Shown here piece by piece: positions 32,364-36,996 of a stretch of DNA of 64,000 nt. Under the pieces are notes generated by a model, which saw only the letters and a program-made list of their open reading frames with translations, was not told where the DNA came from and searched no databases. Source of the DNA: Dehalococcoidia bacterium (GTDB lineage Bacteria; Chloroflexota; Dehalococcoidia; Lucifugimonadales; UBA3495); NCBI GenBank assembly GCA_965263395.1, contig OZ253670.1, forward strand, positions 1,387,958-1,451,957. The letters are read 5' to 3'. Each line of letters starts with the position of its first letter. Position 1 is the first letter of the stretch. The translations under genes were made by a program, and so were the position numbers.

Positions 32364-32524
32364 GCCCGGTATGCGTCCCTGCGGGGTTTGTGGCATAATA
32401 TCCAGCGTCCCAAGGCCGAACAATACGGAATGAATACTCTGTACGCCGCCGTCGTAAGCCCCTTGCTGCGATGCGGCGCCAAGTTAATCGGGAACTAACC
32501 CGTCCCTTTCAGGAGCAGCAAGCA

Positions 32525-33346
32525 ATGTTCGACAAAATTCAGCACATCGGTTATCTGGTGGACGACCTGGATGCCGCCGTGGCGTGGTTCCGGGACACTT
32601 TCGGCGGAGAAAACGCCGGCGGCAGCGACCTCAACCCCAGCGTGGCCGTTCCCAGCGGCGGCCGCAACGCCTTCGTCCACTTCGGGCAGGTCGAAGCCGA
32701 GTTAATCGAACCCAACGACAAGACCGGCCTGGCCTCGGGCGCTCTGGTGATGCACCACGTCGCCTATGTCGTCTCCGACATTGACCAAGCCAAATCGGAG
32801 CTGGAGGCCCGGGGATTCCGGTTCGCCACCGAGCGGGCCTTTACCAACGTGCTGGGCCAGGGCGTCCTGTACTTCGACCCGGCCACCACCAACGGCTGCC
32901 TGATGCACCTGACCCAGCAGCCGGAGACGCCCAACGCCACCGGCGTCGGCCAGGGCGTAAACATTGCGAAAATCGTCCACGCCGGCTACCTCGTCCCCAA
33001 CCTGGAAGACGCCATCGCCTGGTACCGGGACAACCTGGACGGCGTTCACATCGGCGGGGGCGCATCCCGCCGCGGCGGGCGCAACGCTTTCGTCAATTTC
33101 GGCCAGGTCCAGGTCGAGCTTATCGAGCCCGGAGACCCAGCGGCCCTGGGCGGCAGTCTGAGCATGGACCACGTTGGCTACGTGGTTGACGACATCGGCG
33201 CCGGGATCGCCGACTGTTGCAGCCGCGGCTTCCAGTTCGTCGCCGACGCTCCCAACACCAACTCGGTTGGGCAGCAGGTGCTCTACTTTGAGACCGACAC
33301 TACCCAGGGCAGCCGGATGCACCTGACCCAACTGCCGCCGGATTAA
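32525..33346 (+). CDS. tandem VOC-domain protein (methylmalonyl-CoA epimerase/glyoxalase-like)
   Basis: Two repeats of the pattern: MFDKIQHIGYLVDDLDAAVAWFRDTFG...ELIEP...HHVAYVV, then KIVHAGYLVPNLEDAIAWYRDNL...ELIEP...DHVGYVV. Confidence 0.8.
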   Translation: MFDKIQHIGYLVDDLDAAVAWFRDTFGGENAGGSDLNPSVAVPSGGRNAFVHFGQVEAELIEPNDKTGLASGALVMHHVAYVVSDIDQAKSELEARGFRFATERAFTNVLGQGVLYFDPATTNGCLMHLTQQPETPNATGVGQGVNIAKIVHAGYLVPNLEDAIAWYRDNLDGVHIGGGASRRGGRNAFVNFGQVQVELIEPGDPAALGGSLSMDHVGYVVDDIGAGIADCCSRGFQFVADAPNTNSVGQQVLYFETDTTQGSRMHLTQLPPD

Positions 33347-33362
33347 ATCCGGTTCGCCCGTT

Positions 33363-33956
33363 GTGTCTTCAGACGTGACTTATCCCGATGCCCAACCGCA
33401 AAACATCATCCTGGTTGGATTCATGGCCACGGGCAAGACTCAGGTGGGACGCCTGCTGTCCGACCGCACCGGCTGGCCGCTACGGGATGCCGACGATGAG
33501 ATTGTCCGCCGAGCCGGCCGACCCATTGATGACATCTTCGCCCGGGACGGCGAGGCGTCCTTCCGTGACTTGGAACGCCGGGTTATCGACGACCTTTGCG
33601 CCGGTTTCCGCCAGATAATTTCCGCCGGCGGGGGCGCCTTCATCCCGGCGGGAAACCGGGACTTGATGCTGCGCCGCGGGGTGGTGTTCTGCCTGTTGGC
33701 GACGCCGGAGACGATTTATTCCCGGGTGCTTGCGGAAGCCGATCCCGACCCCCCGGTGCGGCCGCTTTTGGCAGGAGCCGACCCCTTGCAGCGCATTCAG
33801 GAGTTGCTGGACAGCCGGGCCGAAGCCTACTCCCACGCCCACCACACCATCCCCACCGACGCCCTGACGGTAGCGGAAGTGGCCGCCCGGGTAATGGCCC
33901 GCTGGGAAGAAGCTAGTGTCCCCTTGGAGGACTCCAATGGAGGTGGACTAAGTTGA
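33363..33956 (+). CDS. aroK: shikimate kinase
   Basis: Walker A NIILVGFMATGKTQVGRLLS, then DADDEI and ISAGGGAF. Confidence 0.85.
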   Translation: MSSDVTYPDAQPQNIILVGFMATGKTQVGRLLSDRTGWPLRDADDEIVRRAGRPIDDIFARDGEASFRDLERRVIDDLCAGFRQIISAGGGAFIPAGNRDLMLRRGVVFCLLATPETIYSRVLAEADPDPPVRPLLAGADPLQRIQELLDSRAEAYSHAHHTIPTDALTVAEVAARVMARWEEASVPLEDSNGGGLS

Positions 33957-35482
33957 TCTTCCACCGTTGGCGGCCAATCGAACCCCCCGGAAAGGAAATT
34001 GAGCAGTACGATTTCAGCGAAATTGACTCGTTGCAGCGGCAATGGTTAAACGTAAAGCGGGATAAAGAAGCGGCCAACCCCAACGCTTACCAACCGTTTC
34101 TCGAACGTCTGGAGCGCCGTTGGGCTATTGAGACCGGGATTATCGAAGGCATCTACGACATCAGCCGGGGGGTGACTCAAACTTTGGTTGAGAACGGTCT
34201 CGCGGCCGACCTGATTGAAGCCGGGTCCACCAATCGGGACCCGCAAGAACTAATCAAGGTGTTGAGAGACCATCAGAATGCGGCCGAGTTTGTGACCGAA
34301 AGTATCCGTCGGCAGACTCCATTTTCCAAGCATTACATCAGGGAACTGCACCAAATCTTGACCCGAAACCAGCCCACTTATACTGCGGTGGACCAATTCG
34401 GGACCGTGTTTGAGACCACACTGGACCGTGGCGGCTTCAAGGTTCTGCCCAACAACCCCACCAGACGCGACGGGGCGGTCCATGAGTATTGCCCTCCCGT
34501 CCAGGTGGACAGTGAACTGGACAACCTGGTTTACTTTTACGAGGAATCCGGCAAGGCGAGGGACGACTTTCATCCGCTGTTGGTTGGAGCCTGGCTGCAC
34601 CACGCATTTACCCAGATTCACCCCTTCCAGGACGGAAACGGCCGGGTAGCGCGGGCGATTCTGACCTGGCATCTGGTCAAAGAAGGATACTGGCCCATCG
34701 TCGTTTCCAGGGATGACCGCGAACACTACATCACGTGCCTCGAACAAGCCGATGCGGGCAACTTGACGCCCTTCGTCGAATTCTTGGTTCAACAAGAGAA
34801 GCAGACTATCTTGCAGGCCCTTAGCGAACCTGAATCTGCCCCCGCATTGCAGGCATTCGACCAAGTCCTCGACCACCTGGTCCAGGGCATCCATCGAAAA
34901 CAGTGTGCCCAGGAAGAACAACTCCGTGCGGTCAACCACGTAGCAGAATACCTCCAAAGCGCAGTAAGGTACTATTTGGCTGATCGTCATGAACAAATAA
35001 GCCGTCGATTGGGTGAGGCCGGTATGGTTATCCAACCATCTATAAGTGCTGGAGGCCCATACGATGGAAGGGAACACTGGTACGGACGAGAGGTAAACAC
35101 AACCGCACAAAATGCCGGTCATTGGGCATCTTCAAACGAAGCGCGTTATTTTGCGGCCCTATTGCTGCGGGGTTCTGCAGATAACCCCGCCAATGCCCGT
35201 TTGCCCGTTCTTCGCTTCGTGGTTTCTCTGCACCATGTCGGTAAGGAACTCTCAGGCGTAATGGCAGCCACGGCATTTGCCCGGATCGAGAGACCTCAGG
35301 GAACAGCGGATGATGACGAAGTAGGAGCGAAGTCTGGCGAACTTCACTTCCACGATTGCACCGTTAGCCCGTTCACCTTCACAAACGATGAATCCGATGA
35401 TGCCATACGGCCTCGGTTCACCCGATGGGTCGAAGAACACCTAACAATCGCGTTAACGAAATGGGGAGAGTATTTAACATGA
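33953..35482 (+). CDS. Fic-family protein (class II, internal inhibitory motif) with ~200-aa uncharacterised C-terminal region
   Basis: Fic motif HPFQDGNGRVARAIL (34619 onward). N-terminal TGIIEG (34133-34150) fits the (S/T)xxxE(G/N) inhibitory-helix motif. TTG start overlaps the aroK stop (TTGA). Visibly AT-richer than the flanks. Confidence 0.85.
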   Translation: MIFHRWRPIEPPGKEIEQYDFSEIDSLQRQWLNVKRDKEAANPNAYQPFLERLERRWAIETGIIEGIYDISRGVTQTLVENGLAADLIEAGSTNRDPQELIKVLRDHQNAAEFVTESIRRQTPFSKHYIRELHQILTRNQPTYTAVDQFGTVFETTLDRGGFKVLPNNPTRRDGAVHEYCPPVQVDSELDNLVYFYEESGKARDDFHPLLVGAWLHHAFTQIHPFQDGNGRVARAILTWHLVKEGYWPIVVSRDDREHYITCLEQADAGNLTPFVEFLVQQEKQTILQALSEPESAPALQAFDQVLDHLVQGIHRKQCAQEEQLRAVNHVAEYLQSAVRYYLADRHEQISRRLGEAGMVIQPSISAGGPYDGREHWYGREVNTTAQNAGHWASSNEARYFAALLLRGSADNPANARLPVLRFVVSLHHVGKELSGVMAATAFARIERPQGTADDDEVGAKSGELHFHDCTVSPFTFTNDESDDAIRPRFTRWVEEHLTIALTKWGEYLT

Positions 35483-35528
35483 CCGATGCAGATTTGGCTG
35501 CAACCGTAAATCATTCCGGCGGCAGCTA
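35459..35528 (+). repeat. decayed duplicate of the aroB ribosome-binding site, start and first codons
   Basis: AAATGGGGAGAGTATTTAACATGACC...GATTTGGCTGCAACCGTAAATCATTCCGGCGGCAGCTA versus 35855-35945 AAATGGGGAGTATTCTCATGACC...GACCTGGCCGCAACCGTACATCATTCCGGCGGCAGCTA. The upstream copy encodes a 16-codon relic, MTDADLAATVNHSGGS-stop. Confidence 0.8.
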
Positions 35529-35542
35529 AAGGAATCACAGAA

Positions 35543-35815
35543 ATGTTTGCCCGTCTCCCCGCCTCCGTTTATGGTATGCCGGAGCGCGCTTCCCGCCGGT
35601 GGGTTATTGAAAACTCCGACCTGTCGGGGCAGATAATGATGAAGACCCCCGATTTCGCCGACGTGCCGATCCCCCAAGAACGGCGAGATGGGAAGTTCAC
35701 TCACGCAGCCTATCTGGTCGATTGCGACCACGAAGAGGTATGCGCCTGTTCCGACGACGATTCCGTGGAGTGGATGTTTGTGGAGTTCCTGAATTTTGAC
35801 AGACCGGGCCCTTAA
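35543..35815 (+). CDS. hypothetical protein (weak call)
   Basis: 90-aa ORF between the two aroB-5' repeats. No family recognised and the start is uncertain. Confidence 0.3.
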   Translation: MFARLPASVYGMPERASRRWVIENSDLSGQIMMKTPDFADVPIPQERRDGKFTHAAYLVDCDHEEVCACSDDDSVEWMFVEFLNFDRPGP

Positions 35816-35871
35816 GCCATAATCGGCTCCGGCTCCGTCCATAACCCTATCGATAAATGGGGAGTATTCTC

Positions 35872-36996
35872 ATGACCAACACTACGACAAATCCAGGCGT
35901 CGACCCCGACCTGGCCGCAACCGTACATCATTCCGGCGGCAGCTATCCCGTGGTGGCCGGCTGGGGCCTGCTGGACCGGCTGGGGGAGCGGCTGCTGGAG
36001 CTGGGCGTGAAAAGCCCGGCCTACATCATCACCGACGAAAACGTCATGCGGCTGTACGGACGGGCGGCCCAGTGGTCGCTCCAACGGGCCGGCATCGCCG
36101 CCCACTGCTTCGTTATCCCGCCCGGCGAACCCAGCAAGACTTTCGGGTTGGCCCAGTCCATCTACGAGTGGCTGGTCGGTCTCAAGGCCGAGCGCGGACA
36201 GGCCATCATCGCCGTCGGCGGCGGCGTCGTCGGAGACCTGGCCGGATTCGTCGCGGCCACCTTCCTGCGGGGTGTCCCGTTCATCCAGGTCCCCACCAGC
36301 ATGGCCGCCATGGTCGATGCCTCTATTGGCGGCAAGGTGGCGGTCAACCTGCCCCAGGCCAAGAATCTGGTGGGCGCCTTCTACCAGCCCCAGGCCGTGC
36401 TGGCCGACGTGCAGGCCCTGTCAACCCTGGGCAAGCGGGAGCTTTCCGAGGGCTGGGCCGAGGCCATCAAGCACGGGCTGATTCTTGACGCCAGCCTGCT
36501 GGACGTTTTCGAGGAACACGCCGAGGCGTTGATGGACGTGGAGCCGGAGATTTCCACCGAGGTCATTCGCCGCAGCATGGCTATCAAGGCCGAGGTGGTC
36601 AGCCAGGACGAGCGCGAGACCCTGGGCATCCGCATCCTGCTGAACTACGGCCACACCATCGGCCACGCCCTGGAATCTTCCACCGAGTACGGCCGATTCA
36701 TGCACGGCGAGGGCGTGTCCATTGGCATGATGGGGGCCGCCGGGATGGCCTGCGAGTTGGGCATGATTCCGCAGGAATTGGTGGACCGGCAGCGCGGCCT
36801 GCTCCGGCGGTTCAACCTGCCCATCAAGGCGGCAGGGGTGCCGGTGGACGACATCCGCCGGGCCATGGCCCTGGACAAGAAAGTCCAGTCGGGCACCAAC
36901 CGCTGGGTCATGCTGGAAGGCGTGGGCCGGGCCGTCGTCCGCCAGGATGTTCCCTGGGACCTGGTTGAAGCAACCCTGGGCGAATTGGTGGGGTAG
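35872..36996 (+). CDS. aroB: 3-dehydroquinate synthase
   Basis: IIAVGGGVVGDLAGFVAATFLRGVPFIQVPTSMAAMVDASIGGKVAVN, LNYGHTIGHALE and HGEGVSIGM. Alternative start at ATG 35857. Confidence 0.9.
   Translation: MTNTTTNPGVDPDLAATVHHSGGSYPVVAGWGLLDRLGERLLELGVKSPAYIITDENVMRLYGRAAQWSLQRAGIAAHCFVIPPGEPSKTFGLAQSIYEWLVGLKAERGQAIIAVGGGVVGDLAGFVAATFLRGVPFIQVPTSMAAMVDASIGGKVAVNLPQAKNLVGAFYQPQAVLADVQALSTLGKRELSEGWAEAIKHGLILDASLLDVFEEHAEALMDVEPEISTEVIRRSMAIKAEVVSQDERETLGIRILLNYGHTIGHALESSTEYGRFMHGEGVSIGMMGAAGMACELGMIPQELVDRQRGLLRRFNLPIKAAGVPVDDIRRAMALDKKVQSGTNRWVMLEGVGRAVVRQDVPWDLVEATLGELVG

Follow-up and report, generated by a model that had tools for sequence, protein, structure and literature searches.

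A class II Fic gene in a probable exchangeable cassette slot between aroK and aroB in a Chloroflexota family

We analysed a 64,000-nucleotide stretch of DNA from a Dehalococcoidia bacterium (hereafter the window; G000:C1:1387958-1451957 of a single-contig genome of 4.72 Mb), in which a gene for a 509-amino-acid Fic protein lies between the biosynthetic genes aroK and aroB. We propose, with a probability of roughly 0.7, that the aroK-aroB junction of this Chloroflexota family is a fixed, laterally exchanged cassette slot inside an operon. The slot would be either empty or filled by a class II Fic gene for a protein of ~500 amino acids (aa), by a ~90-aa gene that we call orf90, or by both. The open reading frame (ORF) list and the sequence give the plus-strand order glyoxalase gene, aroK, Fic, a 16-codon ORF, orf90 and aroB (Table 1). 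The TTG start of Fic overlaps the TGA of aroK (TTGA), and its stop overlaps the ATG of the 16-codon ORF (ATGA). An earlier sequence-only reading of this DNA had placed the 509-aa Fic gene between aroK and aroB, with its TTG overlapping the aroK stop, and had taken it to interrupt a normally tight junction; order and coordinates hold, Pfam confirms the gene, and the junction is indeed interrupted. Since the genes are packed co-directionally with overlaps or short gaps, the cargo most likely relies on the promoter of the aro operon for its transcription and is partly coupled in translation. The finding, as read from the sequence, is the variable slot inside the operon, and a toxin- or defence-like function of its Fic protein is plausible.

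How often Fic occupies the slot was surveyed in 201 sampled genomes of the family, whose close homologues are named Caldilineaceae in the source records (G, L and g numbers below are our handles for genomes, loci and genera). The family search for Fic gave matches at E 1e-20 or better in 51 of the 201 genomes. Intact orthologues (n=38, 46-72% identity) and one split copy all lay between aroK and aroB, so that intact Fic is present in ~19% of the sampled genomes and in several genera. The slot check covered the Fic-bearing genomes and was cross-checked by hand from the aroK and aroB coordinates. The order aroK-Fic-aroB was found in 26/26 fetched family loci, and aroB coordinates gave nine further slot copies (G069, G120, G151, G180, G206, G189, G181, G216 and the split copy in G081). 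Among 40 relatives, full-length Fic stood directly upstream of aroB in G005, G024 and G002 (56-70% identity), and synteny of the glyoxalase gene, aroK, the slot and aroB was kept in most family loci examined. The closest known protein, P0002 (81% identity), is also encoded in an aroK-Fic-aroB arrangement with an ATGA overlap. Packing was tight in most loci: the distance between Fic and the aroK stop was -14 to +53 nt, and that between Fic and the aroB start -22 to +56 nt. Fic copies outside the slot were full-length but diverged (36-39% identity), or were truncated, C-terminal-domain-less or stop-interrupted fragments, the truncated and stop-interrupted paralogues showing 36-56% identity over partial matches. 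The sequence-only reading had suggested that the gene may have hitch-hiked into a core operon; a lineage-specific hitch-hiker does not agree with 38 intact copies and one split copy at the same position.

The slot was seen in several states: empty (e.g. G004, G007), with orf90 only (G001, G003, G072, G087 and others), with Fic only (most), with orf90 followed by Fic (G005), and with Fic followed by orf90 (this genome). Deleting everything between two GGAGAATA repeats from the G005 sequence gives the empty sites of G004 and G007 (CCAGGGAGAATACCTGACATGACC). One of these repeats lies upstream of the Fic start and the other is the Fic tail; this suggests a precise loss between two ribosome-binding-site (RBS) repeats. 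Loss or decay of Fic was also found in G081, whose copy is split, and in G012, which retains a decayed Fic tail only. The G012 remnant (locus L023; CAVNPFTLTPDSP...YWQ and a stop codon) lies between aroK and aroB, ~190 nt upstream of aroB, and we read it as directly showing that the slot once held Fic and lost it. In the 82-nt Fic-aroB spacer of G002 (L005), a ~16-nt tandem duplication (TTCTTGACGTAGTTTC twice) spans the Fic stop codon. In a dozen or more genomes, e.g. G004, G010, G020, G059 and G103, aroB is contained in an open frame of 550-600 aa, which may be an in-frame aroK-aroB fusion or a chance open frame in GC-rich DNA.

The Fic gene differs from its flanks in composition at every locus that was compared. 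GC content was 0.66-0.68 for aroK, 0.51-0.58 for Fic plus orf90 and 0.64-0.68 for aroB. In the window, Fic has a GC content of 54.4% and a third-codon-position GC content (GC3) of 59.7%, against 65-66% and 75-87% in the flanks; at ~10 GC points under its neighbours it is compositionally foreign here, as had been noticed from the letters alone. The difference between Fic and flanks was negative in 30/30 loci with both flanks available, with a mean of -13.8 points for GC and of -26.4 points for GC3 (range -10 to -36). The sequence-only reading had named, as the observation that would refute an insertion, the same gene at the same position in relatives with backbone-like composition. The position part of this was found and the composition part was not, low GC being seen in all 30 loci. 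Because the gene occupies the same position in relatives, yet is nowhere backbone-like in composition, neither 'ancestral' nor 'newly inserted' describes it.

Phylogenetic trees of the three proteins were then compared. The AroB and AroK trees recovered the GTDB genera, but the Fic tree did not: genus g37 was broken into at least four clades, the two g12 copies stood apart, and the Fic of this genome grouped with a g12 copy and with G005, while same-genus G002 fell in another deep clade. The approximately unbiased (AU) test rejected Fic monophyly for g37 (p 7e-7), g1 (3e-5) and g12 (4e-69), and also for G198/G091/G127 (4e-70), a trio near-identical in both flanking genes. In agreement, the Fic of this genome has 72% identity to the g12 copy and only 56% to that of G002, whose AroB is 92-94% identical. 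AroK diverges much faster than its neighbours, with 72% identity to G002 against 92-94% for AroB and 90% for the glyoxalase protein. Fic is under purifying selection (omega 0.07-0.22 in eight orthologue pairs), similar to AroK, and for several pairs its synonymous divergence (dS) exceeds that of the flanks, which fits older alleles. Because the trees of aroK and aroB disagree with that of Fic, we conclude that Fic alleles have been exchanged between lineages at a fixed slot. The gene appears to be a polymorphic cassette, neither simply ancestral nor newly inserted, whose alleles would be old, deeply diverged lineages; recombination in the conserved flanks would carry them from one species or genus to another.

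We further studied the duplicated aroB 5' end that follows Fic in the window. The two 34-nt repeat copies (Table 1) were compared by local alignment against 2000 shuffles. Their score of 58 lies ~18 standard deviations (sd) above the shuffles (mean 15.1, sd 2.3, maximum 28), and no other place in the rest of the window scores above 29 for the repeat block. An upstream block, AAATGGGGAG..CATGACC, is likewise common to both copies, as is a rare GTA valine codon. The block of the relic is closest to the aroB of its own genome (32/34), the blocks of ~30 relatives reaching 31/34 or less. The relic, MTDADLAATVNHSGGS followed by a stop codon, corresponds to the short-type aroB N-terminus MTDTDLAATVHHSGGS of G001, G004, G005, G007 and L091; the short N-terminus MTDTDLAATVHH is typical of these five and is shown by the relic, and the functional aroB here begins with a long g6-type start, MTNTTTNPGVDPDLAATVHH. 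The 7-codon length gap between the relic and the aroB N-terminus reflects these two allele types, short and long, rather than decay. Moreover, the Fic tail overlaps the aroB ATG (ATGA joint) in G005 and L091 in the same way as it overlaps the relic here. Contigs from runs of the probable source sample cover 33300-35668 with 0 differences; because these contigs match, the Fic/relic/orf90 joint is reproduced by a second assembler, likely from the same data and so not as fully independent support. Within orf90, short-read contigs of that sample break or drop in depth at 35668-35772 (27x to 5x or 0), which may reflect strain heterogeneity at the cassette. No RNA runs turned up: the material located comprised DNA-type assemblies of that probable source sample and two runs sharing under a tenth of the sampled words. 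The earlier suggestion that the Fic tail and the relic copy the aroB 5' region is borne out by this alignment, in which the similarity far exceeds chance, and we regard the duplicated aroB 5' end as a real recombination scar. Flank relics recur in two other genomes, G005 and G058. The orf90 and Fic genes of G005 are separated by 70 nt with ~88% identity to the aroK 3' end plus aroB leader of G004, which is of the empty type. In G058 (L037), the aroK 3' end is present a second time between Fic and aroB, as a copy of 58 codons that is still open and ~80% identical to that genome's own aroK; this aroK relic mirrors the aroB relic of the window.

The DNA between the repeats was found to resemble that of another genus. 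At the protein level, this orf90 has 83-85% identity to genus g6 (G072, G087) against 58-62% to its own genus, and nucleotides 35540-35860 have 80-97% identity to the two g6 genomes against 55-82% to the own genus. The g6-like stretch takes in the orf90-aroB spacer with its 'ATAAATGGGGAG' leader. From ~35890 onwards the best aroB match is the same-genus G002 (90-95%), so that the mosaic breakpoints fall at ~35528 and ~35890-35905, and the first ~12 aroB codons are donor-type with the remainder resident-type. At the left edge the g6-like sequence starts directly after the relic, with GGCAGCTA joined to AAGGAATCACAGAAATG here and the aroK end of G087 reading AAGGGAAGAATAGAATG. The imported cassette contains a donor aroK-end/intergenic remnant, orf90, the orf90-aroB spacer and the long-type aroB start. 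The sequence-only reading had attributed the scar to the arrival of Fic; because the native ATGA joint is kept and the inter-repeat DNA comes from another genus, it was not made by that event.

Based on these observations, we propose that a resident aroK-Fic-aroB locus received a segment of ~380 bp from another, g6-like genus, which would have carried orf90 together with the donor aroB leader and first codons. On the left, an illegitimate joint would have linked the segment to the end of codon 16 of the resident aroB (entry at codon 17), and the right end would have been resolved by homologous recombination in the conserved DLAATVHHSGGS block. The outcome would be the duplication of the 34-nt block and the 16-codon aroB relic left behind Fic. 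Homology-facilitated illegitimate recombination is one possible route, and a circularised fragment entering by a single crossover is another. We consider it quite probable, at about the confidence that we place in the slot itself, that the orf90 segment arrived after the resident Fic. The reverse order, with Fic entering an orf90-type slot, is less likely because it needs one extra event.

Although orf90 had been taken for an orphan ORF, we identified close orthologues (47-85% identity) that lie between aroK and aroB in 11/11 other genomes, and it is a conserved second or alternative cargo of the slot. It occurs without Fic in at least 9 genomes and shares the slot with Fic in two sampled Fic-bearing genomes, downstream of Fic here and upstream of it in G005. 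No family match for orf90 was found in Pfam, NCBIfam, PADLOC or PHROG, and a database of 5.8 billion proteins held only 5 clusters. Its domain is the C-terminal module of larger Cys-rich paralogues (215-630 aa) in genus g2 (L074-L087), one of which gave an HNH match below threshold.

The Fic protein has the PF02661 fold and the HxFx(D/E)GNGRxxR motif that define Fic/Fido AMP-transferases. The residues H223, P224, F225, D227, G228, N229, G230, R231 and R234 were invariant in 64 orthologues, as were T61, G62, E65 and G66 of the inhibitory motif. Under the classification of Engel et al. (2012), class II enzymes have the inhibitory (S/T)xxxE(G/N) helix on the N-terminal side of the Fic core, within one and the same chain; here TGIIEG occupies residues 61-66 and overlaps a predicted helix (47-64). 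This agrees with the sequence-only reading, which had noted the canonical HPFQDGNGR motif and an internal inhibitory TGIIEG motif (class II), and the protein would be an auto-inhibited AMP-transferase. The AlphaFold2 (AF2) model of the full-length protein had a pLDDT of 87.5 and a pTM of 0.87. Its N-terminal 290 residues matched BT_2513 best in Foldseek (3cuc, E 2e-13), then FICD (3e-10), while the full-length fold search recognised the Fic core only. The C-terminal domain modelled alone (pLDDT 87.0, pTM 0.82) consists of a long helix, an antiparallel sheet and a long C-terminal helix, and gave no PDB or BFVD (viral) fold match with E below 0.03, in line with the earlier remark that this region lacks a family assignment. 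CapZ-like fold matches (TM about 0.4, E 0.03 or worse) were set aside as a resemblance of topology at most. By sequence, only 108 of 1.84 billion 50%-identity clusters contain this domain, which lies at the C-terminal end in full-length (~500-aa) matches, about half of the matches being short fragments. Full-length relatives (30-37% identity) occur sporadically in Acidobacteriota, Cyanobacteria, Proteobacteria, Verrucomicrobiota and others. Our literature searches found no paper on Fic with shikimate kinase, on Fic in Caldilineaceae or on this Fic subfamily. The unique C-terminal domain probably senses a signal or selects the target. A toxin-like or abortive-infection (defence) role is the most likely function, though we hold it only tentatively, and a role as reversible regulatory AMPylase/de-AMPylase comes next as a weaker possibility. 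A second, distant Fic/Doc-like gene lies outside the window at G000:C1:1884511-1884681 (46% identity over 62 residues, in a 267-aa frame).

The best sequence and fold matches of the protein are the class II enzymes FICD/HYPE and Bacteroides BT_2513 (PDB 4u04, 6i7g and 3cuc). It shares with them the inhibitory Glu and the core, and it matches BT_2513 both in sequence (3cuc, E 9e-19) and in fold (Foldseek E as above, TMt 0.78). However, the identity is only about 21%, neither tetratricopeptide repeats (TPR) nor a membrane anchor is present, and the C-terminal domain is a different one. In FICD-type enzymes the inhibitory Glu is required for de-AMPylation. We also compared the protein with SoFic, a single-gene Fic anti-phage system of Shewanella oneidensis and E. 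coli (Millman et al. 2022; PMC12249575). SoFic is described as a class II Fic that is toxic and has a C-terminal domain with a regulatory part; in E. coli its antitoxin AS1, of 47 aa, is encoded downstream (PMC12249575). Like SoFic, the present protein has an N-terminal (S/T)xxxE(G/N) helix, the HxFx(D/E)GNGRxxR motif and an extra C-terminal domain, is encoded by a single low-GC gene, and matches the PADLOC model PDLC03963 (E 6.4e-25, model positions 52-303 of 361). Unlike SoFic, it has 509 aa rather than about 370 aa, scores 33.3 bits against a cut-off of 550 for the NCBIfam equivalog NF046030, matches SoFic in PDB sequences only at E 1e-6 and over the core, has a C-terminal domain that alone gives no match to 3eqx, 3zcn or 9tc* chains, has no AS1-like antitoxin, and lies within a biosynthetic operon rather than a defence island. 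The link to SoFic drawn from the sequence alone holds at the level of the Fic core but not as orthology, because the equivalog score is far below the cut-off and the C-terminal domain differs. An automatic pipeline would probably still label the protein as SoFic, the core-only match notwithstanding.

The slot itself resembles known sites of cassette exchange. Core-genome defence hotspots have been described in surveys of E. coli and Pseudomonas. Like these hotspots, the aroK-aroB slot has conserved flanks and is patchily occupied by alternative, low-GC cargoes, which would be exchanged through homology in the flanks, and the phylogeny of its cargo is discordant with that of the flanks. The slot differs in lying inside an operon, between two translationally linked biosynthetic genes, and in holding one or two tiny cargoes, with two cargo types seen so far; no recombinase or mobile-element genes were recognised among the ORFs listed beside it. 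In Vibrio cholerae, type VI secretion (T6SS) cassettes reportedly enter a fixed locus by one-sided homology, leaving relics and duplicated neighbour-gene ends. The present locus is similar in fixed-locus entry, in homology on one side and in the relics left, but concerns other genes in another phylum, and its relics are pieces of housekeeping genes (aroB 5', aroK 3'). [quoted passage not shown]

Four other explanations of the locus were weighed against the exchanged slot. The likeliest of the four, though still unlikely, is that Fic has been passed down vertically within the aro operon from an ancestor and does housekeeping or regulatory work (e.g. reversible AMPylation, as by FICD on BiP), its absences being losses. 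Its fixed position in several genera, purifying selection, the invariant inhibitory Glu, the best fold matches to FICD and BT_2513, equal dS in Fic and flanks for the closest pair (G198/G091) and a Fic identity that broadly tracks AroK identity all speak for it. On the other hand, the Fic tree is in strong disagreement with the trees of its flanks and the genera, intact copies are confined to about a fifth of the genomes with split or decayed ones in G081 and G012, GC3 lies ~26 points under that of neighbours in the same mutational environment, and close relatives in unrelated operons (purM-purH) argue against any link peculiar to shikimate synthesis. Had Fic inserted recently and in this lineage only, with the duplicated aroB 5' end as its scar, the low GC with its sharp composition boundary and a duplication directly after Fic would be accounted for. 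Such an insertion is very improbable, since the same slot is filled in 38 other genomes, mostly without duplication, Fic is joined to the relic just as it is natively joined to aroB in G005 and L091, and the foreign piece is the g6-like DNA between the repeats.

A toxin-antitoxin pair of Fic and orf90, after the example of SoFic with its 47-aa AS1 (PMC12249575), was suggested by the place of orf90 directly downstream of Fic in the window. We rejected this pairing on co-occurrence and consider it improbable, marginally less so than a private insertion: the two genes meet in two Fic-bearing genomes only, roughly the chance expectation, and on different sides of Fic; a Fic-aroB gap of 56 nt or less leaves no room for orf90 in most other loci; orf90 repeatedly occurs without Fic; and the two genes are of different origin here. 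A consistently adjacent small antitoxin gene, of the kind known for class I FicTA or SoFic-AS1, was not found among the sampled Fic-bearing genomes. As for chance similarity or an assembly artefact as the source of the repeat, only its short length favours such a reading, and we give it next to no weight given the alignment score, the contigs spanning the joint with 0 differences (a second assembler, likely the same data) and homologous joints in relatives that make biological sense. A specific functional link of Fic to the shikimate pathway was also considered as the leading interpretation and dropped, its relatives occupying purine and other operons.

Several points nevertheless weigh against the exchanged slot or the conflict-type role of its cargo. 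A reversible regulator is among the closest folds (FICD and BT_2513), the slot has no defence genes as neighbours, and the PADLOC SoFic match spans the Fic core only. From the glyoxalase gene to the methyltransferase gene, no recombinase, integrase or transposase was recognised among the ORFs, five proteins of which were Pfam-scanned. The trees are quick-search trees of 31 taxa, the flanks have a strong GC3 bias that confounds the dS comparisons, and the order of events rests on few informative sites. Finally, exchange among equally GC-rich genomes by itself does not explain why Fic remains AT-rich.

Relatives of the protein were also found in other housekeeping operons. One of 50% identity lies between purM and purH (L099 2462-3991, in the Dehalococcoidia-labelled metagenome-assembled genome OY762956.1), with a GC content of 43% against 60% in its flanks. 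A distant relative has a pyrimidine-nucleoside phosphorylase gene on one side and a peptidase M50 gene on the other, and another off-slot relative, L095, adjoins transposase-like and DNA-methyltransferase-like genes (judged by eye, without family scan). Because relatives sit at purM-purH and at phosphorylase-M50, co-directional lodging in strings of housekeeping genes is recurrent and not specific to shikimate synthesis. There is a more speculative reading, which we consider unlikely: the Fic subfamily would be a recombinase-less 'operon lodger', a toxin or defence gene specialised to sit between tightly linked essential biosynthetic genes. Its sites may include aroK/aroB, purM/purH and nucleoside phosphorylase/M50 protease. 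It may borrow the operon promoter, and its last codons (KWGEYLT and the stop) may supply the RBS and the overlapping start of the downstream essential gene, and because the Fic tail supplies these signals only base-precise deletions would be tolerated. Under this reading the empty sites of G004 and G007 resemble exact excision between the GGAGAATA repeats. The alleles may persist as ancient polymorphisms that cross genus boundaries, and the interior would stay AT-rich because homologous recombination, with any GC-biased gene conversion, reaches the flanks only.

The features of the locus are listed in Table 1. The aroB start is probably the ATG at 35872 rather than 35857, a choice made because of the comparison with the relatives G072 and G087. 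A candidate promoter straddles the end of orf90 directly upstream of aroB, and its hexamers are kept in G072 and G087; it is a single match, not above the shuffle expectation of 1.4, and may give aroB a promoter of its own in orf90-type slots.

Table 1. Features of the aroK-aroB locus in the window (positions of the window)
Feature	Position	Strand	Evidence
Two-domain glyoxalase gene	32471-33346	+	ORF list
aroK, shikimate kinase, conserved left flank of the slot	33363-33956	+	Pfam PF01202 SKI, E 6e-35
Class II Fic gene, 509 aa, low-GC cassette	33953-35482	+	Pfam PF02661, E 1.9e-17
Auto-inhibitory helix motif TGIIEG, (S/T)xxxE(G/N), residues 61-66	34133-34150	+	Sequence reading
Fic catalytic motif HPFQDGNGRVAR, residues 223-234	34619-34654	+	Sequence reading
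Family-specific C-terminal domain of Fic, residues ~296-509	34838-35479	+	AF2 model
Fic tail AAATGGGGAGAGTATTTAACATGA (KWGEYLT and stop), also RBS and start region of the original aroB	35459-35482	+	
aroB' relic MTDADLAATVNHSGGS and stop: short-type aroB codons 1-16, then TAA	35479-35529	+	
Direct repeat copy A	35495-35528	+	32/34 identity to copy B
Imported orf90 cassette	35529-35905	+	Nucleotide mosaic against G072, G087, G002
orf90, conserved small protein, alternative cargo of the slot	35543-35815	+	11/11 close orthologues between aroK and aroB
Candidate sigma-70-like promoter TTGACA-16-CATAAT	35796-35823	+	11/12 consensus match
aroB, 3-dehydroquinate synthase, conserved right flank	35872-36996	+	Pfam DHQ_synthase
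Direct repeat copy B, within functional aroB	35912-35945	+	

These results suggest that a conserved biosynthetic operon can conceal a long-lived, exchangeable slot for conflict-type genes, and such a slot would escape surveys of defence and toxin genes that are keyed to islands, integrases or neighbouring defence genes. The natural series at the slot, namely empty, Fic, orf90, both orders and three independent flank relics, means that recombinase-less cassette replacement can be reconstructed. Moreover, a gene that keeps its position in several genera and yet stays ~26 GC3 points below its neighbours in 30/30 loci offers a clean test of why accessory genes are AT-rich, whether by selection for low expression, by escape from GC-biased gene conversion or by constant re-import. 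The slot also brings into view a ~500-aa Fic subfamily with a fold-orphan C-terminal domain that is thinly spread over many phyla and for which our literature searches found no characterising paper.

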